This document shows, piece after piece, positions 2,565 to 56,466 of a stretch of 64,000 nucleotides of DNA (positions are counted from its first letter, which is position 1; each line of letters begins with the position of its first letter). Made by a program: the position numbers and the translations under genes. The stretch covers positions 26,182-90,181 of the forward strand of contig JABDBE010000001.1 of assembly GCA_013288805.1 (NCBI GenBank), given 5' to 3'. A model generated the notes under the pieces. It was not told the DNA's origin, did no database searches, and saw only the letters and a list, made by a program, of their open reading frames with translations. The stretch comes from Acidobacteriota bacterium (GTDB taxonomy: Bacteria; Acidobacteriota; Terriglobia; Terriglobales; Acidobacteriaceae).

Positions 2565-4040
2565 ATGCATATTGCTTTTGCTGCCTCGGAATGCGTGCCT
2601 TTTTCCAAGACTGGCGGATTGGCCGACGTGGTTGGCGCTTTGCCGCGAGCCTTGGTTGCCGCCGGGCACCAGGTCAGCGTATACGTTCCTCGCTATCGTC
2701 AAACCAAGCTCTCCGACGCGCAAACCGTTGTCCGCAGCATCACCGTGCCCTTTGATGACCACTATCGATTCTGCTCCGTGGTTACCGGTGGCAGTCACTC
2801 GGGCGTGCGCTTTTATTTCGTAGACTACCCTCCGTATTTCGACCGCGAAGCGTTGTACGGCACATCTGCGGGAGACTATCCCGACAATGCCGAACGTTTT
2901 GCCTTGTTCTCGCGCGCCGTGCTTGAAGCCTCCAAGATATTAGGTGTTCCTAACGTTTTTCATTGTCATGACTGGCAATCGGCGCTGATTCCGGTGCTGC
3001 TGCGAACACAGTATGCGGAAGATCCCGCCTTCCGTGATGTGGGCACAGTCTTCACCATTCATAACATGGGATACCAGGGGCTGTTTCCGCCGGACACATT
3101 GCCGCTTCTTACCCTGCCCTGGGACTTGCTGGCTATCGACAAAATGGAATTCTTTGGGCAAGTGAACTTTCTCAAAGGAGCGCTGGTGTACTCCGATTTC
3201 GTTACCACGGTGAGCCGTAAGTACAGCCATGAGATTCAGACTGCGGAATTCGGTTTTGGGCTGGAAGGCGTGCTCCGCGACCGAGCCGCGACCGTGACCG
3301 GAATTCTCAATGGTGTCGACTACGACGAGTGGAGTCCGCAGGCCGACAAGTTCATTATCGCCAAATACTCACCACAGGATTTGTCCGGCAAGGCCAAGTG
3401 CAAGCAGGATCTGCTGGCGTCGTTTGGCGTGGCCAACGCGGATCTGCGTCTGCCGGTAATTGGAATCGTCTCGCGCTTTGCGGCTCAGAAAGGTTTCGAT
3501 CTGATTGCGCAAATCATGGATCGGCTGGCGCGTGAGGAAATGATTATCGTCGCCTTGGGAAATGGCGACAAGCAATACGAAGAAATGTTCGCGCGCATGC
3601 AGAAACAGTTTCCGCAAAAGATTGCAGTCAAGATCGCTTACGACAACGCGGTGGCGCACAAAATCGAAGCCGGCAGCGACATGTTCCTCATGCCTTCGAA
3701 ATACGAGCCCTGCGGATTGAACCAGATTTACAGCCTGAAGTACGGCACTGTTCCGATCGTTCGAGCCACCGGCGGGCTCGACGATACCATCGATTCCTGG
3801 GATGCGCGCACCGGCAAAGGGACAGGATTCAAGTTCACGGACTACAGCGGCGAAGCCCTGTTGCTCACCATCAAGGAAGCGCTGAAAGCTTTCCGCGACC
3901 AGTCTTCCTGGCAAACGCTCATGCGCAATGGCATGAATAAGGACTTTTCGTGGAACGCATCGGCCAAGGAATATGCCCGCGTCTACGAACGAGTCCGGCA
4001 GGCGCGATCCACGCACAGCCCCGAACTGACGGCAGTATAG
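2565..4040 (+). CDS. glgA: glycogen synthase (ADP-glucose type)
   Basis: 491 aa. N-terminal ECVPFSKTGGLADVVGALP motif and C-terminal PSKYEPCGLNQ. GGAGGG sits before the ATG. Confidence 0.92.
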   Translation: MHIAFAASECVPFSKTGGLADVVGALPRALVAAGHQVSVYVPRYRQTKLSDAQTVVRSITVPFDDHYRFCSVVTGGSHSGVRFYFVDYPPYFDREALYGTSAGDYPDNAERFALFSRAVLEASKILGVPNVFHCHDWQSALIPVLLRTQYAEDPAFRDVGTVFTIHNMGYQGLFPPDTLPLLTLPWDLLAIDKMEFFGQVNFLKGALVYSDFVTTVSRKYSHEIQTAEFGFGLEGVLRDRAATVTGILNGVDYDEWSPQADKFIIAKYSPQDLSGKAKCKQDLLASFGVANADLRLPVIGIVSRFAAQKGFDLIAQIMDRLAREEMIIVALGNGDKQYEEMFARMQKQFPQKIAVKIAYDNAVAHKIEAGSDMFLMPSKYEPCGLNQIYSLKYGTVPIVRATGGLDDTIDSWDARTGKGTGFKFTDYSGEALLLTIKEALKAFRDQSSWQTLMRNGMNKDFSWNASAKEYARVYERVRQARSTHSPELTAV

Positions 4041-4103
4041 ACCGCGGCCAAATTACCCTCGATTGCCGAACGGTGCTGTCAGTTCAAAAACGGAACCGTC
4101 GAA

Positions 4104-4154
4104 GATGACAGTTTTGTCATGAATCTTGACAACCCCATAGGTGTGCTCTAACCT
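4104..4154 (+). promoter_or_regulatory. candidate sigma70-type promoter (TTGACA-17 nt-TAACCT) immediately preceded by a 16-bp palindrome ATGACA-GTTT-TGTCAT
   Basis: Read directly from the sequence, about 220 nt upstream of the radical SAM gene. Coordinates are approximate. Confidence 0.3.
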
Positions 4155-4376
4155 ACAAACAGCCGCTATTTTGAACCTATCTTGCGGTGCTTTCTAATCT
4201 TGTGGGTTTCTTTCAGGCCGAGAGAGTAGACAGGCCGTCCGCTTTCACTCCCTGCCACATCTAAATCCCGCGCCTTTCAGAGTGAATGAAACGACGCGGA
4301 GCCTGTCAATTCGAGCAGCAATAACACTGCACATTGCGACTGCTTGAGGGCAATCGGTGCCAAGGAGGCTCCCGGC

Positions 4377-5930
4377 GTGAACGTTCACCTGATCAATCCA
4401 AGCAGTGTGTCTTTTGGAACGGCGGTCATTACTCCGCGCTGGCAATACGTGTTAGCAGCGGCGACTCCGAAAAGTTTTGGCGACCCTGTGCTGGTCGATG
4501 AAACGCTAATCCAGTTGCGCCCCGAGTCGATTCAGGCCGGAGATGTAGTCGGCATCGGTATTCATACCGCGAACGCGCTGCGGGGTTACGAGATTGGCAA
4601 GGCGGCGCGCAGCCGGGGAGCGTATGTCATCTTTGGCGGAATTCACGCCACACTATATCCCGAAGAGGCGCTTGAACTGGGAGGAGCGCACTCGGTGGTA
4701 AAGGGTGACGGCGACCTGGCCTGGGCGAGAGTTCTCGAGGATTGCCGCGAGGGAGTGCCCAAGCCTCTTTACGTCGGAGGCCAGATCGAGGCCAGTGACT
4801 TCGTGGCTGCGCGCTGGGATCTGGTTCCTCGCAATCGCTATATGTGGGCTTCGGTGCAGACCGTACGTGGCTGCCCTAAGCATTGTTCTTTTTGCTCCGT
4901 CTGGCGCACCGATGGACAGCGGCCCCGCCAGCGCAGCTCCGATGTCGTGATCGAAGAAATCGTGCAGTTGCGCCGGCTGGGCTTCCGTTTTATTGCGCTG
5001 GCGGATGACAATTTCTATCCCGTCACCCTGACCGATCTTAGCCTCGCGATTCAGCAAAAAAACACCGTCCGGGTGAACGAGCTGAAATCCATACGGGCAG
5101 AACGATTTGAACTGATGTCTCGACTTTCGAAACTTCCCGACGACATGGTTTTCTTTACCCAGATCACCATGGAAGCGGCCGAAGATCCCGAATTTCTCGA
5201 TGCCATGAAAGCCGCGCGCATCAAGGGCGCGCTGGTGGGAGTCGAATCGGTCACGCCAGAAGGACTGAAAGATGTCTACAAAGATTTTAACCTCGCCGGC
5301 GAGAAGCTGACGGAGCAACTTCGCACATTCCGGCATCATGGCGTGCATGTCTTGGGCTCTTTTATTTTTGGCCTGCCCAGCGACCGTCCCGAAACCTTCG
5401 CGGCCACAGCCGCTGCGGCCATCAGCGCTGAATGCACATTCGCACAATTCGTATTGCTTAGCCCTTACCCTGGCACCGTCGATTTCAACCGTTGGGAAAA
5501 GACGCTAGGCGATAACCCGCCAACCATCGCCGGAATTCCGCTCACCCGGCGCTGGCTTATTCCAGAGCCGCTCCGTCCCAAGCTGTATTGGGACCATCCC
5601 GTGATGTCAGGCGAAGAGATCCGTTCCCGTACCCAGGCCGTGTGGGACAGCTTCTACGGTTGGGGGCAAATTTGGAAGCGTTCGCGTTTCATCAAATCTC
5701 GCCGGGGACGGGTGGCTTTTGTGCTCATCTCCAGAATTTATCGCATGATGTATGCCGACACCGGCCTTGCCACGGATAGCGCGCGCCTTACCTGGTCCGG
5801 GCGCTGGGCCCGGTGGATGGCAAAGCCTTGCAGGCGTCACTTTGCGGGCCGCCCGATGCCAGATCTCAAGGTGCCAGAAGCCCGGAAACCGGAGTTCGAC
5901 ACGTCATCGTTGGTTTCCTTGTCGTCCTAG
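4377..5930 (+). CDS. B12-binding-domain radical SAM protein (class B), function unknown
   Basis: CxxxCxxC cluster motif (VRGCPKHCSFCSVW) after an N-terminal Rossmann-like B12-binding region. GTG at 4377 lies 8 nt after AAGGAGG; the track ORF starts at TTG 4344. Confidence 0.85.
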   Translation: MNVHLINPSSVSFGTAVITPRWQYVLAAATPKSFGDPVLVDETLIQLRPESIQAGDVVGIGIHTANALRGYEIGKAARSRGAYVIFGGIHATLYPEEALELGGAHSVVKGDGDLAWARVLEDCREGVPKPLYVGGQIEASDFVAARWDLVPRNRYMWASVQTVRGCPKHCSFCSVWRTDGQRPRQRSSDVVIEEIVQLRRLGFRFIALADDNFYPVTLTDLSLAIQQKNTVRVNELKSIRAERFELMSRLSKLPDDMVFFTQITMEAAEDPEFLDAMKAARIKGALVGVESVTPEGLKDVYKDFNLAGEKLTEQLRTFRHHGVHVLGSFIFGLPSDRPETFAATAAAAISAECTFAQFVLLSPYPGTVDFNRWEKTLGDNPPTIAGIPLTRRWLIPEPLRPKLYWDHPVMSGEEIRSRTQAVWDSFYGWGQIWKRSRFIKSRRGRVAFVLISRIYRMMYADTGLATDSARLTWSGRWARWMAKPCRRHFAGRPMPDLKVPEARKPEFDTSSLVSLSS

Positions 5931-32511: not shown

Positions 32512-33756
32512 TTATCCTAAGTACTTCAAGAACTTTCCGGGCTGATTGTCGAAGCCGGGAAAAACCTGATTGAGATCTTTGTTTCCCAGGTGGTTGTACA
32601 CCGCTTCTCCTAAGACTTGTCGGAAATCTGTGGTTACGGCCAAGTCTCGGCCTTCGTAGAGTTGCGATTGATCGAGGCCCGGCCAGCGTCCGTAGACCTT
32701 GCCGCCTTTGACCGGACCACCCATTACGAACATCACGTTGGCGTGACCGTGATCGGTGCCACGGTTTCCGTTTTCGCGGGCGGTGCGTCCGAACTCGGAC
32801 ATGGTCACGACCACCGTGTCTTCGGCGAGGTCGCCGAGGTCGGTCCAGAAGGCTGCTATGGATTGGGAGAATTCGTGCAGGACGTTGGCGATCTGGCCTT
32901 GCGTGCTGCCTTCGTTGACGTGATGGTCCCAGCCGCCGATGTCGGTGAAGGCGACTTGAACTCCGAGATTCGCTTTGATCAGTTGCGCGAGTTGCTTGAG
33001 GCTGTCGCCGAAGTGTCCGCCGGGATAGTCGGCGGCCGCGGCGGGCTTGTATTTCGAAGGATCGGCAGATCGCAGCATCTTTACCGCGTCGAAAGTTTCC
33101 TGACCGGTGCCGTGCAACACGGAATCGACCGAGTGCTCGTACATGGCTTCGAAGCTATTGGCATTCGGCGACGCTTTGGGATTGTTTCCACCTACGCCGA
33201 AATCGTTGATGTTGTTGATGGCGACTGCGGGCTCGCTGCCGGAAAGAATTCGCGGCAGGGACGGTCCGAGGGCGATGGCGCGAAAAGCGTCAGCCGATGC
33301 GGGTTGAGGTAATGAATGTAATGACCGGTTCAGCCAGCCGTCTTCGGTTGCTTTTATTCCGGGCGTCCCCGATTCCATAAAGTCCTGCGCGTCGAAGTGG
33401 GAGCGAGTTGGATCGGGCGATCCCACGGCGTGCACGATTGCCAGATGACGCTGCTTCCACAAAGGCTGAAAGGGCGAGAGCGAAGGATGCAGCCCGAAGA
33501 ATCCGTCGAGATCAAACACGGCGTTGCGCGGTATATTGATGGACGGCCGCATGGCATAGTAGGCGCGCTCGTGGTGGGGCACGACGATGTTGAGGCCATC
33601 AGCCGCGCCGCGTTGGAAGATGACGACCAGGCGCTTATTCTTTGCCCCCAGCGATTCCGCTGCGTACGCGGCACGAGTGAGAAACGCCGGAATCGCTGCT
33701 GTGCCTACGACGGCTAGGCTGCTGTTTTTCAGAAATACACGCCTCGTGATTGACAT
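32512..33756 (-). CDS. DUF1501 domain protein (Tat-exported, sulfatase-like fold)
   Basis: Twin-arginine-type signal (SITRRVFLK). C-terminal SEFGRTARENGNRGTDHGH. Confidence 0.9.
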   Translation of the reverse strand: MSITRRVFLKNSSLAVVGTAAIPAFLTRAAYAAESLGAKNKRLVVIFQRGAADGLNIVVPHHERAYYAMRPSINIPRNAVFDLDGFFGLHPSLSPFQPLWKQRHLAIVHAVGSPDPTRSHFDAQDFMESGTPGIKATEDGWLNRSLHSLPQPASADAFRAIALGPSLPRILSGSEPAVAINNINDFGVGGNNPKASPNANSFEAMYEHSVDSVLHGTGQETFDAVKMLRSADPSKYKPAAAADYPGGHFGDSLKQLAQLIKANLGVQVAFTDIGGWDHHVNEGSTQGQIANVLHEFSQSIAAFWTDLGDLAEDTVVVTMSEFGRTARENGNRGTDHGHANVMFVMGGPVKGGKVYGRWPGLDQSQLYEGRDLAVTTDFRQVLGEAVYNHLGNKDLNQVFPGFDNQPGKFLKYLG

Positions 33757-33767
33757 ATAAACTCCTA

Positions 33768-33798
33768 GGCTCTTGGCTTCTGGCTTCTGGCTTCTGGC
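33768..33798. repeat. tandem heptamer TGGCTTC (about 3.5-4 units)
   Basis: Lies between the DUF1501 start and the DUF1800 stop. Confidence 0.6.
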
Positions 33799-33867
33799 GA
33801 TGCTTTCGTGCTCACAGTTGCTTATGTGAAGCCCAGTCTTCAGTAGTTCTTAGTTCTCGGTTCTCCG

Positions 33868-35835
33868 TTATCTTCTTTGAAACTCGGGTGACCCTAACAG
33901 CAAGCCTGCGATCAGGCTGGTGTTTGGCGGCCGGGCTGGATCGTCCAGCTTGCGATGGCTGATTTTGGAATCCTGCAAACGCGCGCTGATGACGTCGTGC
34001 GTCTGCTTGGAAACATCTCCGGCCAGAAGGCTATTCTCTAACACGGCTAAGGCCTGTTGCGGATCTTTTTGTTCGGTGAATTGATTTACTTGTACGCCTT
34101 TTACTTTTCCGGACGTCAGCGCCAGAGCAAAATTCATGCGGCCCAAGAGTGCGGAGGAGTTGACCCACGCGTCAGCCTTCATGGAATAGCCGGTGGGGGG
34201 CTGCATGCCGTAGAGTTGCATGCCCATGTTTTGAAGCTGGCGTGCAATGGGCATGGCGTCGGTGACTTCGGCTCCGCTGGCGCGAACCGCCGAGACTACG
34301 AACTCCAGCGGAGTTTTCACTTTGGCGCGATAGGCATTGGGCGCCCAGAACTCGGGCGAGTCCAGCATCGTCTTGAGTACCTCACGGATGTTGCCGTCTT
34401 TCTTTAAGAAGGTTTGCGCCATGCGATCCACCAAGGGCTGCGGCGGTTGGTCGGACACGAAGCGCATGGCGAGTTTGGTGCAGATGAATTTCGCGGTCGC
34501 AGGATTTCGTGCCAGGATATGCAGAACCTCGAAGCCTTCCTTCTCACCTTTTGGTTTGATGCGATGCCCGAGCACAATCTTGTCTCCGGGTTCATGCGTG
34601 CGCTCCTCGAAAGTGAAGCCACCACCTTGCTTGGGCTGCTTCAGTGTCCATCCGGTGAAGACGCGCGCTACTTCGGTCACATCTTGCTGCGTGTAGCCTC
34701 CATTCACACCGAGAGTGTGAAGTTCCATCAGTTCGCGGCCATAGTTTTCATTGAGTCCGTTACGCTTGCCCTTGGATTGGCTGGTTTGAGCTTTGTTTCT
34801 GATTCGCCGCCTCGATTGATTGTTGGCCTGCTTGGGGATGCCGTTGGCGACATCGGAGTTTGGTCCAACGCTCAGCCAATTGTCGAGATAGAACAGCATG
34901 GCGGGACTCTGCGCGGTGGCAACCAGCAAGTCTTCAAATTTGCCCAGGGCGCGGGGACGAATGACGTCGCGCTCGTAGCTGGTGAGCAGGTAGCGATCGG
35001 CGCCTTTGCCGATGAAAACATTGAAGTGATTAAACCAGAAGTCGGTCATCACTTCCTGCAACTGACGATTGCTGCAAATGGCGCGCAGCAACTTGCCTTC
35101 GACGAGTTCGTTGTTGACCACCTGTTGAGGGTGGTCGAGTGCCTCGACGGTTTCGCGCTGTCGCGGATTCATCCCTTCCATAAACTCGTCGCGCTTGTCG
35201 CCTTGAAGGGCGCCAGTCAGGGCGCGTCGATCTTCCGGTGACATTTCCAGCACCGCTTTCATACGCTGGTCTGTTGGCAGGTCGAGGAGTTCTTCGATTT
35301 TTTCATCAGCTGCAGCGCGTTCTTGCTGGCGGCGGGTGCGTTCGTCGTCCGCGACTTTGTCGGCACCAGCGACGGCAGTCTGCTGCTTGCGGTCTTCTTT
35401 GTCCTGGTAGCGCTCCAGTTGGGCCTGATAAACGGCGCGCTTCAGGGGATCAGAGGGAAGCGACTGCTTTCCGTCGGCGACAGCTTTGATCATTTGCTCG
35501 GACGGAAAGTTCTGAACAATCTCTCGCGTGTCCATGCGCAGGGTGCGAAATGGAGAGAGGCGGGCATCGAGCGCATCGTCATTAATTTTTTCGGGATGAA
35601 GTTGCTGATCGATCCACTTGTCCACGCCGATTGCCAGCACGTGATCGACGTCGCCGGGGCGAGGGCCGAAGGTCAGACGGTTGAGCGCGTGCACCGCCTG
35701 TTTCTGCTCGTCCATTTGCGGATTGGCTGTGGGATGTTTGTCTTTTTTCTTACCCAGCGCCAGTTGAACGGAGATGGCGAATCCTGATAACGAGAGCAGA
35801 AGGATTAGGCCGATTTTGAGGCGTCCCAGGTTCAT
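33868..35835 (-). CDS. DUF1800 domain protein
   Basis: 655 aa. DFWFNHFNVF motif. The usual upstream partner of DUF1501. Confidence 0.9.
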   Translation of the reverse strand: MNLGRLKIGLILLLSLSGFAISVQLALGKKKDKHPTANPQMDEQKQAVHALNRLTFGPRPGDVDHVLAIGVDKWIDQQLHPEKINDDALDARLSPFRTLRMDTREIVQNFPSEQMIKAVADGKQSLPSDPLKRAVYQAQLERYQDKEDRKQQTAVAGADKVADDERTRRQQERAAADEKIEELLDLPTDQRMKAVLEMSPEDRRALTGALQGDKRDEFMEGMNPRQRETVEALDHPQQVVNNELVEGKLLRAICSNRQLQEVMTDFWFNHFNVFIGKGADRYLLTSYERDVIRPRALGKFEDLLVATAQSPAMLFYLDNWLSVGPNSDVANGIPKQANNQSRRRIRNKAQTSQSKGKRNGLNENYGRELMELHTLGVNGGYTQQDVTEVARVFTGWTLKQPKQGGGFTFEERTHEPGDKIVLGHRIKPKGEKEGFEVLHILARNPATAKFICTKLAMRFVSDQPPQPLVDRMAQTFLKKDGNIREVLKTMLDSPEFWAPNAYRAKVKTPLEFVVSAVRASGAEVTDAMPIARQLQNMGMQLYGMQPPTGYSMKADAWVNSSALLGRMNFALALTSGKVKGVQVNQFTEQKDPQQALAVLENSLLAGDVSKQTHDVISARLQDSKISHRKLDDPARPPNTSLIAGLLLGSPEFQRR

Positions 35836-39141: not shown

Positions 39142-39717
39142 TTAGCGGCGTGGTTTGCTTGGGATAGCGCTCAATGTCATCTCATCCGCGGGACTTCCAC
39201 TCTGCTTTTTCCATTCGAAGAACAGCTCTGTATAGGTTTTGGTGAGGTAGTCGCTTCGCGCGATTTGCAGCGTCTGCGCAGTTCGATCAATCCAACGCGA
39301 AGGACCCTCGATTTCGCCAAAGTTCCCTATTGGAGTTTCATCCACGACCACCTGTCCCTTGCCGTCGCTCCACTCCGCCCGGAACTTCTCATAGCGAAAG
39401 GTTGGGGCGAATCCGAGGGCGCGCAAGATCGCTTCCATCATGGCGCCATCGGCGACTTTGGTTTCAGTCTCTACGCGCGTCTTGTGCCGTCCCGCTTTGC
39501 CTTTAGCTTTGTGGGTCAGCAGCCACTCGGCTCCGTACTTACGCAAGCGGAGCAACTCGCCGCGTTTCCGGAGCGGTTGACCAGGCAAGTCGTAAAGCGT
39601 GTTCATTTCGTGGGTGCGACGGGTGAGTAAACGGAAGCCAGCTTTTCGCAGCCACCGATTGAGAGCCGACAGATCAGCAACGCGAAACTTGATTTCGATT
39701 TCGTTATGCGAAGCCAT
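39142..39717 (-). CDS. CYTH-domain protein (class IV adenylate cyclase / triphosphatase, CyaB-like)
   Basis: N-terminal NEIEIKFRV (ExExK) motif at Met69 of the track ORF. Confidence 0.85.
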   Translation of the reverse strand: MASHNEIEIKFRVADLSALNRWLRKAGFRLLTRRTHEMNTLYDLPGQPLRKRGELLRLRKYGAEWLLTHKAKGKAGRHKTRVETETKVADGAMMEAILRALGFAPTFRYEKFRAEWSDGKGQVVVDETPIGNFGEIEGPSRWIDRTAQTLQIARSDYLTKTYTELFFEWKKQSGSPADEMTLSAIPSKPRR

Positions 39718-39758
39718 TGAAGTCAGTATAGAAGGCTTCGGGCCACGGTGGTCCGTGA

Positions 39759-40730
39759 CTACGCGAACGTGGGCAGTTTTATGAGGTCGCTTTTGGGGAC
39801 GGGCTCCAGTGCCTGGCCCGCCTTCTTCCATGCCGCTACGCCGCCCACGAGGACGAACGCGTTGAATCCTTGTTCTCGCAGTTGCAGCGCCACCCGGGCG
39901 CTGGTCGCTTCGCGTGCTCAAGTACAGTAGACATAAATGTCTTTGTCCTTGGGTAAAATTTTGAGTTCCTCGGAAAGATTGTTGGGTTCAAGCCGGATGG
40001 ATCCTCTGATGCGCTCCGCGTTCGCGTCGTAGTAGCCGTGGCTGCGGACGTCGAGGATCAGAACCTTGTCCTTTTCTTCGGAGGCTAGCTTGCTTGCCAG
40101 TTCTTCGACTTGCACACGCGGCACCACGCGGTACACCTTGTTTTTGTGGTACAGCCAGACGCGATAAGCGATATAGGCAATAGCGGCTAAGAAAAACACT
40201 TCTCCAAATGCGCGGCTGGCGGCTTGAAATCCTCGTGTGATCGCCGCTACGAAGTCGCGGAACAAAAACCCCATCCCGCTATAGGCCAGGATGTACAGTG
40301 ACGCGCCGGCGGAGTCGAAGCGGAGGAATTGCAGCGGACGCATTCTCATGCTCCCGGCCAGCGGAGGAGCCATGGTGTTGACGCCGGGAATAAACTTGGC
40401 GACCAGAAGCGTAGTCTTCCCGCGTTTGTAGAAAGACTCAGCGGAACGCAGGATGCACGATTCAGGATTAACTGACAAACGACAGAGAAGACCCAGCAGG
40501 CTCCAGCCCATGTAGCGGCCGAGGATGAAGAGCAGTGTGTCCCCAATGAGCGCCGCGCTCAGGGCGACAAAGAGCGCTCTATATATGTTTAGAGTGCCGG
40601 CGGCCGCGGCCGCGCCTGCAGCCACCAACGCCACGGCTGCTGGAACGGGCAATCCGATGGCCTCGCCTAGCACCACCAGGAAGAGCAAAAGATAGCCATG
40701 GTGCGCGATTAGTGAAAAAACGTGGTTCAT
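39759..40730 (-). CDS. DedA-family membrane protein fused to a rhodanese domain, with an in-frame TGA (39918-39920) at the catalytic-loop position: candidate selenoprotein. A conventional call ends at 39918.
   Basis: DedA TM core (residues 1-190) plus a rhodanese domain, ...DKDIYVYCT-TGA-AREATSARVALQLREQGFNAFVLVGGVAAWKKAGQALEPVPKSDLIKLPTFA-TAG. The tail was verified through overlapping track ORFs. Confidence 0.6.
39885..39903 (-). other. SECIS-like hairpin CAGCGCC-CGGGU-GGCGCUG starting 15 nt after the TGA
   Basis: 7-bp all-Watson-Crick stem with a GGU-containing pentaloop. The sequence was cross-checked in two reading frames of the track. Confidence 0.45.
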
Positions 40731-40919
40731 CTTCTGCCCGTTAGATTGAGACTATTAGATCGACGGCCTGATCAAGAAGATTCAATGCCATAGAAGGAAC
40801 AATAATCCATATGGCCGGAAAAGCCAAAACTGAGGTCGCCAGAACCAGCACACATCGGTTCGGGGTAGCCGTTGAAAGCGAGAGTTTTCCGGGCGCTGGG
40901 CGTAGTGCTTGAGTTGTTC

Positions 40920-41924
40920 CTATTTTTCTCTTGCAACTACGAATTCGGGGGCCCACAACAAGGCGCGTTTGATCTCGCTGTCGGGGAAGCTGCAGATTGC
41001 ATTTCGCGCCATCCCCGCGTACTGCATGGCGCGAGCGTTGGCCGCTTCGACCGAGCCATAGCGGTTCAGGATCGCTAGGATTTCTCCATGGGTCACGCCA
41101 TCGAATGCTCGCTCCCGCACGACCTTGCGGATGCGCTCGCGCTCGTGCGACGTGCAGCGCTCGAGCGCATGAATCACGGCCATCGTGACTTTTCCCTCAC
41201 GCAGATCGCTGGCTACGGGCTTGCCCAGCACGTCCTCGGAAGCAGTCAGGTCAAGGACATCGTCCACAAGCTGAAAAGCCATACCAAGATCGCGGCCGTA
41301 CTGCGCGAGGTTCTCTTCCTGCTCTGGAGTCGCTCCGCCGAGGATCGCTCCCATGCGCATGCACACAGAGAAGAGACAAGCGGTTTTGCGGAAAATCAGA
41401 TCGAAGTGTTCGTCCGAAGAAATCAGCTTGCCCAGTTTCTCCATCTGCAGCAATTCGCCTTCGACCATCTGCTGGGTAAGGTCGATCAGGGTGTCGAGGA
41501 TGCGGAAATTTCGCTCTTGCACAGCGATCTTGAACGCCTGCATGTAGAGCCAATCGCCGGCCAGCACGCACTTCGAGTTTCCCCATTGCGTATTGGCAGC
41601 GGGACGGCCACGACGGGTCTGAGCCTCATCGATGATGTCGTCATGGACCAGCGTGGCGGTGTGAATGATTTCGACGACCGCGCCGAGTTTGATGGCGCCG
41701 CGTCCGGGGTAATTGAAGAGTTTGGCGGATAGCAACAAGAGCATGGGACGAATGCGCTTGCCTCCGCCGCTGCGAAGGTATTCGCCAATCTCGGTGATCG
41801 CCTCCACGCCCGAAACCGTATCCCGCCCGAACTCGCGCTCTATAGCAGAGAGGTCGCCGCGCAGCAATTCAAAAATTTCTTTTCCGTCGATGATGGCAGG
41901 CGTACTCAATCGGTTCGTCCCCAA
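40920..41924 (-). CDS. polyprenyl diphosphate synthase (long-chain, IspB-like)
   Basis: LVHDDIIDEAQTRRG and FQLVDDVLD aspartate-rich motifs. Confidence 0.9.
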   Translation of the reverse strand: MGTNRLSTPAIIDGKEIFELLRGDLSAIEREFGRDTVSGVEAITEIGEYLRSGGGKRIRPMLLLLSAKLFNYPGRGAIKLGAVVEIIHTATLVHDDIIDEAQTRRGRPAANTQWGNSKCVLAGDWLYMQAFKIAVQERNFRILDTLIDLTQQMVEGELLQMEKLGKLISSDEHFDLIFRKTACLFSVCMRMGAILGGATPEQEENLAQYGRDLGMAFQLVDDVLDLTASEDVLGKPVASDLREGKVTMAVIHALERCTSHERERIRKVVRERAFDGVTHGEILAILNRYGSVEAANARAMQYAGMARNAICSFPDSEIKRALLWAPEFVVAREK

Positions 41925-41960
41925 TTCAAAAGCCCCATGCGCAGACGTGCCAAAACTTTC

Positions 41961-42458
41961 CTAGTTGGTTCGGTAATTCGTAAACTGGGTATCAATGCCA
42001 AAATCCTGGCCGCGCAGCAGTGCAATGATTTCCTGTAAGGCGTCGCGATCTTTGCCGCTCACTCGCACCAGGTCTCCCTGAATCGAGGCGTTTACTTTTT
42101 TCTTGGAATCCTTAATGACCTTCACGATCTGGCGCGCCTTCTCGATAGGGATGCCTTGCTGCATGGTGATCTTCTGTTTTACCGTGCCCCCGGCGGCGGG
42201 CTCGACCGCTCCGTAGGTCAGGCCCTTCAGAGAGACGCCGCGCTTCACCAGTTTCTGCTGAAAGATTTCTGTGACCGCTTTCAATTTGTATTCGTCAGCG
42301 GAGTGCAGATTGATGGCGTCCTTGCCTTCGAGTTCGATGTTCGACTTCGAGTCTTTCAGATCGAAACGAGTGTGAATTTCTTTTAGCGCCTGCTGCATGG
42401 CGTTCGAAACTTCCTGCAGGTCGAGCTTGCTCACAATGTCAAAAGTGTTCTCTGGCAT
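41961..42458 (-). CDS. yajQ: YajQ-family nucleotide/cyclic-di-GMP-binding protein (UPF0234)
   Basis: 165 aa, FDIVSKLDLQEVSNA N-terminus. Confidence 0.9.
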   Translation of the reverse strand: MPENTFDIVSKLDLQEVSNAMQQALKEIHTRFDLKDSKSNIELEGKDAINLHSADEYKLKAVTEIFQQKLVKRGVSLKGLTYGAVEPAAGGTVKQKITMQQGIPIEKARQIVKVIKDSKKKVNASIQGDLVRVSGKDRDALQEIIALLRGQDFGIDTQFTNYRTN

Positions 42459-42516
42459 GATATTTCGCTTCTAAGTAACAGATTACGCAGCCCCAGCAAA
42501 AGATGCTCTTAACAAG

Positions 42517-43350
42517 CTAAATGGAGTTGAGCTTTTCGTGAAGTGAAAAGAAACGGTAAAAGTTGTTGGCTGTTTGAAAGCCAATGTCCTCCATCGATTG
42601 GCCGCGGATTTCGCCAATCTGCCGCGCCGTTTCTTTTACGAACGACGGCTCGTTGCGCTTGCCTCGATGGGGTACGGGCGCGAGAAATGGCGAGTCGGTC
42701 TCAATCAGCATGCGGTCGAGCGGTACCTGTTTTGCAGCGTCACGAATCGGCTGCGCCTTGGGGAACGTAACGTTGCCGGCGAAAGAGATCATGAATCCCA
42801 TGTCGAGCGCTCGCGTGGCGTGGGCCATGGTTCCGGTGAAACAGTGCAAAATCCCGCCGAGGCCGTTTCCCGCCCAGCGTTCGCGCAACAGCGTCAGGCA
42901 ATCCTCCCACGCATCGTCGGTACCGTCAGACGGGCGGCAGTGGATCACGATGGGGAGCCTGGCCGCTTGCGCCATCTCCAGTTGCCTCAGGAATACTTGT
43001 TGTTGAATGTCGCGTGGTGAATGGTCGTAGAAATAATCCAGCCCGATCTCTCCCCAGGCGATGACTTTGGGTCGCGTTGCCAGTTGCGCCATTTCTTCGA
43101 AATCGGCATCCCGAGCCAGCTTGGCTTCGTGAGGATGAATACCGATCGTCGCATAAATAAAATCGTGCTGTTCGGCGAGTCGAATGGCACAGTCGAGAGA
43201 ACCTGGGCCGGTTCCGCTGCCGATAGCGAGAATCGTCTCGATCCCAGCTTCACGGGCGCGCGCGATCACTTGTTCTCGGTCAGCCTCGAACTGCTCCGTC
43301 TCAAGATGCGCGTGGGAATCGACGAAGATGGGTCGTTGGTCGTTGGTCAT
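42517..43350 (-). CDS. TatD-family metal-dependent hydrolase
   Basis: FVDSHAHL...IGLDY...HCR...ETDSPFL. Confidence 0.9.
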   Translation of the reverse strand: MTNDQRPIFVDSHAHLETEQFEADREQVIARAREAGIETILAIGSGTGPGSLDCAIRLAEQHDFIYATIGIHPHEAKLARDADFEEMAQLATRPKVIAWGEIGLDYFYDHSPRDIQQQVFLRQLEMAQAARLPIVIHCRPSDGTDDAWEDCLTLLRERWAGNGLGGILHCFTGTMAHATRALDMGFMISFAGNVTFPKAQPIRDAAKQVPLDRMLIETDSPFLAPVPHRGKRNEPSFVKETARQIGEIRGQSMEDIGFQTANNFYRFFSLHEKLNSI

Positions 43351-43358
43351 TGGTCGTG
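43331..43358. repeat. tandem heptamer GGTCGTT (4 units)
   Basis: ggtcgtt/ggtcgtt/ggtcatt/ggtcgtg. The array contains the TatD start codon and encodes its first residues, MTNDQRP. Confidence 0.6.
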
Positions 43359-43401
43359 TCGTAATGGACGACTTGCGGATATGCAGGTAAAGACGCTCGC
43401 T

Positions 43402-45426
43402 TTATTTCAATCTCGTCCCGACCGGTACATCTTCCAGGAAGCTTGCCAAGACGGCCTTTCCGCCCTCCGGCGACGCGGCCACAATCATTCCGTTCGATTC
43501 CAGTCCCCGGAGTTTTCTGGGAGCAAGGTTCGCAACGATGACAACTTTTCTCCCGATCAATAACTCCGGCGCGTATGACTCGGCGATTCCGGCCACCACT
43601 TGGCGAACCTCGGTGCCCAAATCAACTTCCAATCTTAGTAACTTATCCGCGCCTTTTACTTTCTCGGCGACTTTGACTTGCCCCACTCGCAGTTCCACCT
43701 TGGCGAAATCTTCGATGCTGATCTTGCTCACGGGAACAGTTGCGGCGTTTGCAGAGGGCGCGGTTGGCGGAGCGACAGCGGAAATCGCGGCCGCGGTGGA
43801 TGCCTCGGGATGCGCTTCGGTTACGGTCGCCCCACTTCGTTGCTGCTCTTCCATTTTCTGCATCCTTTCGATCGCGCTCTTGTCGGCGCGCGGGAATACG
43901 GCTTCGACATTGCCTAACTTCGTGCCCAGTTGGAGTTGTCCCCACTTTAAATCTGAGAGGGGGAACTGGCGAATATCACCCAGTCCCAACTGCGCCCAGA
44001 TTCTCGAAGTCGCGTCGGGAATTACCGGATGAGACAGCGCGGTCACGATGCGCAAGGCTTCGGCGCTGGTATATAAGATCGTCGCCAAGCGCGATCGGCT
44101 TTCTTCATCCTGCTTCTCGCCCAACGCCCAAGGCTCATTTTCAACAATATATTTGTCGACCGCGGCGACTAGACTCCATGCGACTTCCAGAGCGCGAGAA
44201 AACTGATATTGATCTACCAACGTGCTGTACTCGGCGATCACTCTCCGCGCGCTTTCCGCTATAGCGCTGTCTCCCGCTCTTTGCGAGACCGTAGCCGATG
44301 GATACGGAACTTCGCCGCGAAAATATCGCGTGATCATGGTCAGGGTGCGGCTGGCGAGGTTGCCGAGTCCGTTGGCCAGGTCGGCGTTATAGCGCTGGAC
44401 CAGCGCGTCAAAAGAAAAAGATCCATCCTGGCCGAACACGACCTCGCGCAGCAGGAAATAGCGCAGCGCATCCGCGCCAAGCACATCGAGAATTGTCTCC
44501 GTGCGCACGATGTTTCCGCGCGACTTCGACATTTTGCTTTCCTCGAACAGCAGCCAACCGTGCGCCACAATACCTTTGGGCAGCGGAAGCCCAGCTGCCA
44601 TAAGAAACGCGGGCCAATACACACAGTGGAAGCGAACGATCTCCTTGCCAATCATCTGTACATCAGCCGGCCAGTATTTCTTAAACGCTTCCCGAGCGCC
44701 TTCGTGCGACGATCCGTAGCCGATGGCGGTAATGTAGTTTGCCAGCGCGTCGAACCACACGTAAATCACATGCTTAGGATCGTCGGGTACGGGAATGCCC
44801 CAGGAGAATGTCGAACGGCTGATCGACTGATCGCGCAGTCCGCTGCGCACGAATGACATTACTTCATTCCGCCTGGTCTCGGGCCGGATGAAATCGGGTT
44901 GCTCGGTGTAGAGTTGCAGCAGTTTGTCCTGAAACGCGGAAAGTTTGAAAAAGTAATTCTCTTCCTTCACCGTTTCCGTCGGACGTCCGCACTCCGGACA
45001 AGGAGTCCCAGGCTCAACCGCATCCACGTAAAGTTCGTCGAAGACGCAATACTGGCCGCTGTACGTGCCTTTGTAAATGTAGCCATTGTCACGAATGCGC
45101 CGGAAGAGTTCCTGCACTCGCTTTGTGTGACGTTCTTCGGTCGTACGGATAAAGTCGTCGTTGGTGATGCCCATGCGTTTCCACAATGCGCGGAACTGCG
45201 CCGAAACTTCATCGGTATATTCTTGCGGGGTTTTGCCCGCGGCTTCCGCAGCGCGTTCGATCTTCTGCCCATGCTCGTCGGTACCGGTGAGAAAGTAGGT
45301 GTCTGCGCCCAGCATGCGCTGCCGCCGCGCAATCGTGTCGCAGGCAATCGTGGTGTAAGCATGACCGATGTGCGGCCGCGCGTTGACGTAGTAAATCGGA
45401 GTCGTAATGTAGAACTTTTTATTCAT
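43402..45426 (-). CDS. metG: methionine--tRNA ligase (with C-terminal tRNA-binding domain)
   Basis: HIGHAYT and KMSKS motifs. EMAP/Trbp111-like C-terminus. Confidence 0.95.
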   Translation of the reverse strand: MNKKFYITTPIYYVNARPHIGHAYTTIACDTIARRQRMLGADTYFLTGTDEHGQKIERAAEAAGKTPQEYTDEVSAQFRALWKRMGITNDDFIRTTEERHTKRVQELFRRIRDNGYIYKGTYSGQYCVFDELYVDAVEPGTPCPECGRPTETVKEENYFFKLSAFQDKLLQLYTEQPDFIRPETRRNEVMSFVRSGLRDQSISRSTFSWGIPVPDDPKHVIYVWFDALANYITAIGYGSSHEGAREAFKKYWPADVQMIGKEIVRFHCVYWPAFLMAAGLPLPKGIVAHGWLLFEESKMSKSRGNIVRTETILDVLGADALRYFLLREVVFGQDGSFSFDALVQRYNADLANGLGNLASRTLTMITRYFRGEVPYPSATVSQRAGDSAIAESARRVIAEYSTLVDQYQFSRALEVAWSLVAAVDKYIVENEPWALGEKQDEESRSRLATILYTSAEALRIVTALSHPVIPDATSRIWAQLGLGDIRQFPLSDLKWGQLQLGTKLGNVEAVFPRADKSAIERMQKMEEQQRSGATVTEAHPEASTAAAISAVAPPTAPSANAATVPVSKISIEDFAKVELRVGQVKVAEKVKGADKLLRLEVDLGTEVRQVVAGIAESYAPELLIGRKVVIVANLAPRKLRGLESNGMIVAASPEGGKAVLASFLEDVPVGTRLK

Positions 45427-45502
45427 TTGCTCATTTCAGCAACGGTAAGGAATTCTGATGCTTTCCTTCGCGAAGATTGGTGCGCTTTTGTTGATGATTT
45501 TT

Positions 45503-46951
45503 TCAGCGTTGGCGGTTCATATAAACCTGCAGAACTTCCTGCATGACGCTTTTCAAAGGCACATGGCATTCAGCCGCAATGCGCCGGCAATCCTCATATT
45601 CAGGAGCATAATTCGTGACTGTGCCATTCATGCTGGCAACCTTCATCCGTATATCGCCCCATCGGGTCGCTATCGTCACCCATTCTCGCGCGAGTGTTTG
45701 ACGCTTTTCCTCCCGCTGCCGCACGCCTAGCGTCGACGTTTCCGTGAAAATCAGATCCATCATTTTCGGTGCATCCTCGTTGCGGCAAAGAACCGTTAGC
45801 AGCATGCCCGGGCGATTCTTCTTCATCTGCACGGGCATGCCAAAAGCATCCAGCGCGCCCTCCTCGAGCAAACGGTCCATCACATAGCCGAAGACTTGCG
45901 GATTCAGGTCGTCGATATTGGCCTCGAGCACGGTGATCGTATCGCAAGGGATCCCCGCCGTAAATTCCGGCTGACTTTCGCCGATGGCAAGCCGCAAAAC
46001 ATTCGCGTGTCCGGCAAAGTCACGAGTGCCTGCACCGTAGCCGGTCTTTTCTATTTTCATTGCCGGAAATGGCGCGAATCGTTTTGCCAGCGTTTTGACG
46101 ATGGCCGCGCCAGTTGGTGTGACTAGTTCGAATTGGATTCCAGACGAATACACCGGCGCATCTTTCAACAACTCGAGCGTCGCCGGCGCCGGCACGGGCA
46201 AAGTTCCGTGGGCGCACTTCACGGTGCCTCCGCCAACGTTCAGCGGCGAACAGACGATTTCGTCGACCCCGAGTGAGTCAACCCCAACTGCGGCGCAGAC
46301 AATATCCACCATCGCGTCCACCGCTCCTACTTCGTGAAAATGGACTTTCTCGATGGTGGTGTCGTGAATCTTGGCCTCTGCTACGCCGAGCGCTTCGAAG
46401 ATAGCGAGAGCTAAGGTTTTCGCCCCGTCGCTAATTGCCGCCTTGCGGATAATGCCGCGGATTTCATTCAGCCCACGTCCATGTTCATGGGAATGGTTGT
46501 GAGCATGCTCGTGTTCGCGCGATGCTGGCTTCGCATCGCGATGCGCCTCGACCAGCGCTGATGCGGTTCTGGTCGGCGAAGGTCTTTGCCCTTGCAACGC
46601 ATAATTGTGCTCTAACAAGGCGATCGGTTCAGATTCGTGAGCACTCGCGTGTTCGAGCTCGTGAATTTGTGGATGAGCCCGTTCCTCGTGTTCGTGGGCT
46701 GGTCCAGAATGTTCTTCGTGCTGCTCCAGATAAGCCTCGCGTGGCTGGTCCTTCTCGCCATGCGAATAAACATCTGCCTTAATTGCACTGATGCCGTTAC
46801 GCTTAACCCGAGAAATCTCCAGCCGGGCATCGATATTCAGCGCCGCGACCGTTTGCTCGAAGAGTTGCTTCGGTACACCGGCATCGACCAGCGCGCCCAG
46901 AAACATGTCGCCGCTGATGCCGGAAAAACAATCAAGGTAGGCTATACGCAT
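45503..46951 (-). CDS. larC: nickel-pincer cofactor biosynthesis protein LarC (DUF111) with His-rich insert
   Basis: MRIAYLDCFSGISGDMFLGALVDAG N-terminus. HEHEHAHNHSHEHG tract. Confidence 0.9.
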   Translation of the reverse strand: MRIAYLDCFSGISGDMFLGALVDAGVPKQLFEQTVAALNIDARLEISRVKRNGISAIKADVYSHGEKDQPREAYLEQHEEHSGPAHEHEERAHPQIHELEHASAHESEPIALLEHNYALQGQRPSPTRTASALVEAHRDAKPASREHEHAHNHSHEHGRGLNEIRGIIRKAAISDGAKTLALAIFEALGVAEAKIHDTTIEKVHFHEVGAVDAMVDIVCAAVGVDSLGVDEIVCSPLNVGGGTVKCAHGTLPVPAPATLELLKDAPVYSSGIQFELVTPTGAAIVKTLAKRFAPFPAMKIEKTGYGAGTRDFAGHANVLRLAIGESQPEFTAGIPCDTITVLEANIDDLNPQVFGYVMDRLLEEGALDAFGMPVQMKKNRPGMLLTVLCRNEDAPKMMDLIFTETSTLGVRQREEKRQTLAREWVTIATRWGDIRMKVASMNGTVTNYAPEYEDCRRIAAECHVPLKSVMQEVLQVYMNRQR

Positions 46952-55658: not shown

Positions 55659-56426
55659 TTAGTGGACTTGCGCTACACGACTCACGGCATTCTTCAACGC
55701 TTCGGCATCGAACCCGAAGGGTCCTGGTTTGCTTTTGTACGCCACGTGGCCGGTCGCATCGATCAAGTAAAGGCGGTCTGGCCAAGCCGTGTACGCCTGT
55801 TCCGTCGAGTTGCCGAATTCATCGAGTACGGCAGGAATATCGATCCCGAGCTTGCGGACGCAGGCACCCGCGGCGAAACTACGTTCTTCTTCGCTCCTCG
55901 GACTGGCGAAGACAACATTGTCCTTAATATTGCTCTGCATCTGCCAGACGTCGCTGGGGTGCGCCTCGGTAATGTACACCACCAGAAACGCGACTTGCTT
56001 TCCGTATTGCTGGTAGAGCTTGTTGAGGGCAGGAACCTCCCGCCGAAATGGAGGTCAAGTGTAGCTTCCGAAGATCAACACCACCGGTTGTCGTTGAGCG
56101 GTAAACGCCGACAACTGCACCTGTGCGCTTTTGTCCAGCTTCGTCAGAGTAAAGTCGGGCGCAGGATCTCCCACACGCAGTTTGCCGGCACGAGCACGCA
56201 TCCACAAGGTTTCAAATGGAAGCACGAGAAACGCAACCGGACCCGGTATTCGCGCCATGACCCGCGCAAAGGTCTCTGGCGATTGCCGCATGACTGCGTA
56301 GAGCGACCCGCAGGCGAACACCCACAAGAGTGCGATCACACCCAATGTTGCGAGCAATCTTCTGCGCACAGATCTGCGCTTTGCGGTCAAGTGTTCCTCG
56401 TCCATCTGAAGTTGATCTGAGCCCAC
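55659..56426 (-). CDS. membrane-anchored iodothyronine-deiodinase-like thioredoxin-fold selenoprotein (in-frame TGA = Sec at 56055-56057)
   Basis: Track ORFs 56055..56426 and 55659..55982 share one frame, separated only by TGA. The junction reads FGSYT-U-PPFRREVP...VYITEAHPSDVW. An N-terminal TM helix is present. The start is GTG 56426 or ATG 56405. Confidence 0.8.
56028..56044 (-). other. SECIS-like hairpin GGCGGG-AGGUU-CCUGCC beginning 11 nt after the UGA
   Basis: 6-bp stem (one G-U) with a GGU-containing pentaloop. A competing hairpin GACCUCC...GGAGGUU is also possible. Confidence 0.55.
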
Positions 56427-56438
56427 GAGAGTTACGTG

Positions 56439-56466
56439 ATTATAGAGACAGCAAAGGGCTGGTCAA
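56439..56466 (-). promoter_or_regulatory. sigma70-type promoter TTGACC-16 nt-TATAAT for the selenoprotein gene
   Basis: The -35 box is at 56466-56461 and the -10 box at 56444-56439 (minus strand). The predicted TSS lies a few nt upstream of GTG 56426. Confidence 0.5.

Follow-up and report, generated by a model that had tools for sequence, protein, structure and literature searches.

The bacterial selenocysteine insertion sequence (SECIS) of the Escherichia coli fdhF type is a stem-loop in the coding sequence shortly 3' of the UGA codon, with G and U in its apical loop, and new selenoprotein families turn up regularly by comparative analysis of the kind presented here. Selenoproteins of the rhodanese type were already reported in early metagenome surveys (PMC1088965). 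Five forms of them are distinguished in a 2026 review, among which form 3 is NF041203 with the motif CxU, and form 5, TsoB (NF045694), is rhodanese/DsbD fusion-like with the motif UxxxxU and two selenocysteine (Sec) residues (PMC13188914). Deiodinase-like proteins are also a recognised prokaryotic selenoprotein family (PMC1088965, PMC13188914), and Acidobacteria were listed among the Sec-using phyla in 2006 (PMC1794560, Table 2). Here we describe a gene for a DedA-rhodanese fusion protein with an in-frame TGA, found in an Acidobacteriota bacterium of the family Acidobacteriaceae (assembly GCA_013288805.1, contig JABDBE010000001.1, positions 26,182 to 90,181 of the forward strand). This whole stretch of 64,000 nucleotides is called the window, and positions below are those of the window.

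The open reading frame (ORF) 39918..40730(-) encodes 270 amino acids (aa), with the C-terminal end ...KDKDIYVYCT followed by TGA at 39918-39920. Beyond this TGA, 52 in-frame sense codons (AREATSARVALQLREQGFNAFVLVGGVAAWKKAGQALEPVPKSDLIKLPTFA) run up to TAG at 39759-39761. The complete predicted selenoprotein gene covers 39759..40730 (-) with 323 codons, starting at ATG 40730 and having the in-frame TGA as codon 271; tail peptides of the read-through product would be, for example, VALQLR and EQGFNAFVLVGGVAAWK. The UGA codon (39918..39920, (-)), which would be read as selenocysteine, opens the rhodanese loop U-A-R-E-A-T-S, where the catalytic Cys is otherwise found. Cys269 (codon TGT, 39924..39926, (-)) is the C of a C-T-U motif and a candidate resolving cysteine, and U271 is located 25 residues upstream of G296-G297.

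We consider it very probable that the gene encodes a true selenoprotein, with a SECIS and with selenocysteine at UGA-271. An open stretch of 52 codons after the TGA, for which we roughly estimated a chance of 1 in 8 at the local base composition, is unremarkable alone, and so is the energy of the hairpin; the case rests on comparison across sequences.

Domains and conservation across the TGA codon

Pfam was run on the read-through protein with Cys placed at the TGA. A DedA/VTT membrane domain was found at residues 29-154 (40269..40646, (-); PF09335, 42.0 bits, cut-off 33.9), and a rhodanese domain spanning the TGA was found at residues 219-304 (39819..40076, (-); PF00581, E = 3.5e-12, profile 10-102 of 102), scoring 47.1 bits against a gathering cut-off of 22.2. 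The rhodanese match reaches the end of the profile only with the tail translated. Through phmmer, residue 271 was aligned with the Cys of the loop C-G-S-G-F-R-S in the solved rhodanese 6mxv, where the query loop reads U-A-R-E-A-T-S.

The AlphaFold2 model of P0001, a natural Cys orthologue (predicted local distance difference test score 77), consists of helices throughout residues 2-202 and of an alpha/beta domain at about residues 205-310. Foldseek with this model gave 18 matches at E <= 0.001, all of them rhodanese structures. Among these are proteins that handle persulfides, such as coenzyme A-persulfide reductase, a fusion of persulfide dioxygenase with rhodanese, and Sud, a polysulfide-sulfur transferase. 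No solved DedA-like structure was matched in this Foldseek search, and the rhodanese part alone gave meaningful E-values. These comparisons support the view that Sec would replace the catalytic Cys of a six-residue rhodanese loop, U-A-R-E-A-T, which is followed by S.

Only four redox-capable residues are present in the window protein, C83, C92, C269 and U271. The first two form a Cys83-x8-Cys92 pair in the DedA domain (LLCRLSVNPESCILR; 40455..40484, (-); codons TGT at 40482-40484 and TGC at 40455-40457). In an alignment of 193 fusion homologues, about 185 have a residue at those columns, with Cys83 in 183 and Cys92 in 185, and this conservation is independent of the pattern by which the sequences were selected. 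Cys269 is Cys in 79/79 TGA forms; the pattern used to retrieve the metagenomic Cys forms presupposes Cys at both 269 and 271, and those forms give no independent support for Cys269.

For the genome sample, one genome was taken per GTDB species, giving 80 loci, all from metagenome-assembled genomes of Acidobacteriota and mostly of Terriglobales/Terriglobia, with 63-95% amino-acid identity to the window protein. Codon 271 is TGA in 78 of the 80 species-representative genomes, TGC in one (L066), and lies in a frameshifted gene in one (L074). The 78 genome loci and the window make up the 79 TGA sequences. In the 79 intact loci among the 80 genomes, the frame runs on to a stop at an essentially identical place. 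The match in L074 (10001-10970) is 970 nt long and one base in excess shifts the frame in the gene; it is the sole disrupted orthologue of the 80, and the frameshift may be an assembly error rather than a sign of a pseudogene.

The ratio of nonsynonymous to synonymous differences (pN/pS) of the tail is 0.22 with pS 0.585 in the 79 TGA sequences. Upstream of the TGA, pN/pS is 0.29 with pS 0.70, and in the upstream part of the rhodanese domain pN/pS is 0.22. Because the tail ratio is this low despite near-saturated synonymous differences, we conclude that the tail is translated and functionally constrained. With TGA kept in 78 of 80 species and with both tail and hairpin conserved, the predicted read-through is far beyond chance. 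Two other explanations of the open tail were rejected: genome-wide UGA reassignment, as TGA terminates 12 of the 36 Pfam-supported genes in the window, and frameshifting, as the tail lies in frame 0.

In the protein database search, products of 269-270 aa made up about 92 distinct clusters at the 90% identity level, and these are 79-96% identical to the window protein. Six truncated entries were fetched, four of them full-length at 270 aa, and every one ends in ...YCT. A further 25 homologues are full-length, at about 323 aa and 63-84% identity, and have Cys at the TGA position, and the tails of the full-length Cys homologues are near-identical to the translation after the TGA of the window. 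Another 109 distinct metagenomic sequences with Cys at 271 were found with a TGY pattern that requires a Cys codon. The Cys homologues read YCTC[AVIL]R[ED]ATSARVA, and the 25 from the database also have Q, as YCTC[A/V/Q]R[E/D/Q]ATSARVA.

The closest Cys orthologue, P0001 of locus L201, is syntenic, has TGC at 271 and keeps the hairpin intact; it reads TAC TGT ACT TGC GCA CGC GAA GCG ACT AGC GCC CGG GTG GCG CTG, a one-base TGA-to-TGC Sec/Cys exchange as read from the sequences. Most or all of the SECIS hairpin is kept by the Cys-form genes L126, L117, L157, L112 and L201, which suggests that the hairpin-keeping Cys forms are recent Sec-to-Cys conversions. In a neighbour-joining tree, Sec and Cys forms were interleaved with 13 parsimony changes and a 64-sequence Cys-only group outside, a crude tree from which the direction and number of exchange events are not reliable. 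Judged by this comparison, Sec and Cys forms swap repeatedly among the orthologues. The interleaved forms, some of them one base apart with the SECIS intact, offer a natural series in which to follow how Sec and Cys replace each other and how a SECIS decays.

A preliminary description of this gene, made from the letters of the window, stood up well. The end of the ORF, the in-frame tail, the TAG and the 41-nt gap to the next gene were confirmed with all coordinates, the GG noted 25 residues past the TGA proved to be G296-G297, and the second Cys two residues 5' of the TGA is C269 of C269-T-U271. It had put the TGA at the catalytic Cys position, with which the homologue Cys column and the 6mxv alignment agree. 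Three of the checks that it had proposed gave these results: full-length homologues show Cys at the TGA column; orthologues at this codon show 78 TGA and one TGC among 80 genomes, with L201 also TGC; and the tail is not neutral (pN/pS 0.22), with one frameshift (L074) in 80 loci. The Cys motif given there, YC-x-C-P-N-E-A..., was roughly right in layout and is to be replaced by the YCTC motif of the real homologues.

Hairpin, Sec decoding and alternative readings

The SECIS-like hairpin is located at 39885..39903 (-), with a 7-bp stem (arms 39897-39903 / 39885-39891) and the loop CGGGU at 39892-39896. In the window it reads CAGCGCC-CGGGU-GGCGCUG, the stem starting at the 15th nt past the TGA and the apical loop starting 22 nt past the UGA. 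An invariant 5-bp core (39897-39901 / 39887-39891, (-)) has the form GCGCC-CG(G/U)GU-GGCGC. RNAalifold placed a 5-bp core stem at positions 20-24 / 30-34, counting the U of UGA as 1, with the loop CG[G/U]GU. This core is paired, and the CG[G/U]GU loop kept, in 73/73 distinct Sec forms, and all five pairs are Watson-Crick in 71/73 of them versus 20/108 Cys forms. The loop CGCGU is the commonest in the Cys forms and is absent from the Sec forms.

The same constraint was found at the codon level. Of the 79 TGA forms, 77 have AGC at codon +6, and all have GCC at +7, CGG or CGT at +8, GTG at +9 and GCG at +10. The 109 Cys forms code for identical amino acids and vary freely in codon choice. They have at codon +7 GCG (44), GCC (34), GCT (21) and GCA (10); at codon +8 CGC (43), CGG (35) and others; at codon +9 GTG (64), GTC (26), GTA (14) and GTT (5); and at codon +10 GCG (72), GCC (16), GCA (11) and GCT (9). 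Through the whole gene there are 46 fourfold-degenerate codons with a conserved amino acid, with a median major-allele frequency of 0.51, and the third base is invariant only at +7, +9 and +10. Ranking next after these is the codon before the UGA (39921-39923(-)), which is ACT in 77 of the 78-79 TGA forms; the same Thr codon in the Cys forms is ACC in 52, ACT in 31, ACG in 19 and ACA in 7. The ACT bias suggests a constraint on the 5' context of the UGA. Codon +2 was also unusually fixed, being CGC in 75/79 TGA forms.

Positions 18 and 36, at the wobble sites of Thr +5 and Leu +11, form the outermost stem pair. In the 42 forms containing this Leu, the pair is C-G in 28 and G-C in 9, with no C·C or G·G, and the Fisher p of 8e-9 is a value without phylogeny correction. 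The sequence data support a hairpin constrained as RNA, specifically in the TGA forms, and the pattern fits the expectation for a bacterial SECIS in a family that exchanges Sec and Cys.

A second candidate for Sec decoding is found 16 kb from the DedA-rhodanese gene. This deiodinase-like gene of the thioredoxin fold (55659..56462, (-)) has an in-frame TGA at 56055-56057 in the motif FGSYT-U-PPF, and a Pfam T4_deiodinase match extends across the TGA (E = 2.8e-33). The NCBIfam model NF038285 scores 186 bits on it, below the 250-bit cut-off. A hairpin GGCGGGA-GGU-UCCUGCC (56028-56044, (-)) starts its stem at the 11th nt past the UGA. The codon before the UGA is ACT here too, as in the DedA-rhodanese gene.

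Through ARAGORN, a single tRNA-Sec was detected among the 200 fetched loci. It is located on L139, a 5-kb metagenomic contig, at 3799-3892 of the complement with the anticodon tca, adjoining in divergent orientation a Cys-form DedA-rhodanese gene at 3955-4947(+). This arrangement beside a Cys-form gene may be due to chance, or it may point to a connection with selenium metabolism.

Three further statements of the preliminary description can be set against these results. The 7-bp GC stem with the loop CGGGU 15 nt past the TGA was found exactly as it said; the deiodinase-like gene 16 kb off is real, its T4_deiodinase match spanning the in-frame TGA; and its mention of rhodanese-like selenoproteins predicted in metagenomes agrees with PMC1088965.

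Several points weigh against a selenoprotein gene. Sec at residue 271 is read from sequence comparison. The covariation and invariance statistics, including the Fisher p = 8e-9, lack phylogeny correction. The hairpin region folded alone is no stabler than shuffles (z = -0.44), and the conserved part is an upper stem of 5-7 bp only; the lower stem CGCG/UGCG of the minimum-free-energy fold of the window was dropped, as the orthologues do not conserve it. Nothing relevant was matched in Rfam, either for the whole window at gathering thresholds or for 39700-40000 at permissive E-values. No selA, selB, selD or tRNA-Sec was found within the 64-kb window, in which ARAGORN found no tRNA gene and a Pfam scan of 41 ORFs found no SelA, SelB or SelD.

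This lack of Sec machinery genes within the window speaks for the alternative that survives best, a conserved programmed termination or read-through without Sec. The 270-aa DedA protein would then be the main product, or a near-cognate tRNA would insert small amounts of Trp or Cys, the read-through being stimulated by the hairpin. We also count for it that in bacteria termination normally competes with Sec insertion, from which a truncated isoform is expected. We nevertheless regard it as improbable, because the UGA lies exactly on the catalytic Cys column and swaps with Cys codons only, the position of the hairpin and its G/U loop are as expected of a bacterial SECIS, a gene of a known selenoprotein family in the window has the same arrangement, and the rhodanese domain finds its best NCBIfam match in a (seleno)protein model and shares the CxU motif.

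Much less credible is a recent nonsense mutation that truncates the rhodanese domain and leaves a decaying or domain-less 270-aa product. The public annotations looked at all end at the TGA, and 52 open codons could arise by chance, as such a mutation would have it; the same codon is TGA in 78/80 species with synonymous sites near saturation (pS ~0.7), and purifying selection has kept the tail open in its frame (pN/pS 0.22), and by this TGA conservation and tail selection the mutation is excluded. Equally hard to credit is a split into two genes, with the TGA as the true stop of a DedA gene and GTG 39893 as the start of a separate small peptide. The in-frame GTG-initiated ORF exists (39759..39893, 44 aa); the 44 aa would be an incomplete rhodanese, the Pfam match is continuous over the TGA, the Cys homologues are single polypeptides, and the codons from TGA to GTG are as conserved as the rest. 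The weakest explanation, a TGA produced by sequencing or assembly, could point to the possible assembly error at the related locus L074, and is refuted by the recurrence of the TGA in dozens of independent assemblies from differing projects and platforms, with the exact 270-aa product on 12 contigs.

Possible role and genomic neighbourhood

If UGA-271 encodes selenocysteine, the hairpin in the coding sequence, with its stem 15 nt past the UGA, would act as a bacterial SECIS and recruit SelB with Sec-tRNA(Sec), and the UGA would be read as Sec instead of as a stop. With selenium or the Sec machinery in short supply, ribosomes would stop at the UGA and release the 270-aa product listed in databases. 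The full product would consist of an N-terminal polytopic DedA/VTT membrane domain and one C-terminal rhodanese domain. As the last helix is followed by the basic stretch HKNKVYRVVPR, the rhodanese domain probably faces the cytoplasm, and the Cys83-x8-Cys92 loop would likewise be on the cytoplasmic side by positive-inside reasoning from the basic residues at about 84-105.

For the chemistry, Sec271 might take up a sulfane sulfur or a selenium atom, forming a Se-S or Se-Se adduct, which we propose with low confidence. Alternatively, Sec271 and Cys269 may form a selenenylsulfide in which Cys269 is the resolving residue, with a possible relay to C83/C92. The protein would then be a membrane-anchored chalcogen-transfer or redox module coupled to the transport carried out by the DedA domain. 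Our confidence in any specific biochemical role is low, and it counts against such a role that it is drawn wholly from domain identities, motif conservation and positive-inside reasoning.

One such role would be a dedicated membrane chalcogen device. The DedA domain would bring selenite, selenide, or a sulfane or polysulfide compound up to the membrane or through it, and Sec271/Cys269, via Cys83/Cys92, would capture it as a Se-Se or Se-S adduct for acceptors in the cytoplasm such as SelD. We regard this proposal as doubtful. The hints for it are a DedA mutant linked to selenite, the L139 tRNA-Sec neighbour and the four near-invariant redox residues. The mutant is one of Ralstonia metallidurans linked to selenite uptake, as a citation within PMC11422209 has it, and a link to selenite through DedA is speculation. 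In a second reading, also of low confidence, the Sec-rhodanese would gate a DedA-type recycling of polyprenyl phosphate according to its redox state. The sole support for this reading is the adjacency of a polyprenyl synthetase gene, which may matter because NCBIfam names some DedA relatives undecaprenyl-phosphate transporters (UptA).

That gene adjoins the DedA-rhodanese gene in about 68/80 genomes, as part of a conserved gene-order block at about 39142-46951 (-) compared through loci L001-L080 and L201. The same-strand order of methionyl-tRNA synthetase (MetRS), TatD, YajQ/DUF520, polyprenyl synthetase, DedA-rhodanese and CYTH was found in about 67-70 of the 80 genomes and also in L201, where the DedA gene is preceded by an insertion of two additional genes (PDDEXK_3 and RidA-like). 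In fewer genomes the block is followed by signalling genes of the GAF-HD (36/80) and PAS-SpoIIE (15/80) types. An adjacent pair of DUF1501 and DUF1800 genes at 32512-35835(-) is near the locus in only 23/80 related genomes. The neighbourhood is a housekeeping one, in which no genes for sulfur or selenium occur.

The next gene encodes a CYTH-domain protein with its Met codon at 39717, 41 nt past the TAG. The predicted ORF 39142..39921(-) of 259 aa was rejected as a spurious 5' extension of this CYTH gene, as the Pfam match and the 192-aa call in L201 fit Met 39717. A promoter and terminator scan around the gene found no promoter-like site, and no intergenic terminator-like site on the coding strand.

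Comparison with known systems

The best NCBIfam match of the rhodanese part is NF041203, rhodanese_LYCAU '(seleno)protein' (E = 7e-25, profile 13-122 of 126). The two share the Y-C-x-U layout, with Sec at the catalytic loop and Cys two residues earlier, and C269-T-U271 reads as the CxU of this form. They differ in the motif, which is LYCAU in the model and YCTU in the window, and the score of 87.1 bits is under the 115-bit cut-off. Unlike the model, which with 126 positions has the size of a single rhodanese, the window protein is a membrane protein of 323 aa with rhodanese as its C-terminal third.

On the DedA side, the N-terminal 200 residues are above the cut-off of VTT_dom (PF09335), and the DedA and UptA models matched weakly. 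The scores were 36.0 against 300 and 29.6 against 250 for the undecaprenyl-phosphate transporter models UptA NF052604/NF052605, and 50.9 against 236 for the E. coli DedA equivalog NF008102. Further features that set the window protein apart are its C-terminal rhodanese domain and perhaps its conserved C-x8-C pair. No DedA/VTT (PF09335) selenoprotein was found in PMC13188914 or among the papers listed by the literature searches, which gave nothing on a DedA-selenocysteine-rhodanese fusion or on selenoproteins of Terriglobia. NCBIfam release 20 has no model dedicated to the DedA-rhodanese fusion. The 26 public entries in the cluster of the window protein and in that of its closest orthologue are all truncated, and the named ones are "VTT domain-containing protein" or "DedA". 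Across the entries looked at, about 92 clusters in the protein search, the truncation removes the catalytic residue together with one third of the rhodanese domain, and a family-specific model flagging the UGA would fix the truncated 270-aa entries.

If the selenoprotein reading is true, the still poorly understood DedA/VTT superfamily gains a selenoprotein, none having been found in the literature searched, and the fusion of a Sec-rhodanese to a DedA transporter would be a chemical clue to what this branch handles. As the TGA form is the rule in the closest 80 species, many uncultured soil Acidobacteriota would depend on selenium supply and Sec decoding. Were the doubtful chalcogen device also true, a selenoprotein would act within selenium acquisition itself, with a selenium requirement in many of these uncultured soil bacteria.

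For a relay of chalcogen or redox equivalents at the membrane, TsoB comes closest in concept, as by its name in PMC13188914 it also joins a Sec-rhodanese to a second module. Its partner is DsbD-like and not DedA, and NF045694 was absent from the NCBIfam matches of the window protein at E <= 0.01. Compared with the fdhF-type SECIS, the hairpin is likewise an intragenic stem-loop near the UGA with a G/U apical loop; it differs in that the conserved stem has 5-7 bp only and no bulged U is evident, and in having no relevant Rfam match.

Also close are the Cys-type DedA-rhodanese fusions, which the Joint Genome Institute (JGI) names 'membrane protein DedA with SNARE-associated domain/rhodanese-related sulfurtransferase'. 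They have the same architecture, about 323 aa and 63-84% identity, and the synteny is the same in L201, the one Cys locus examined; they differ in TGC or TGT for TGA and in relaxed synonymous sites over the hairpin. The window gene thus combines a known active-site type, the Sec-rhodanese, with a new DedA fusion architecture, and in the 80 closest species-representative genomes this combination is what is usually found.

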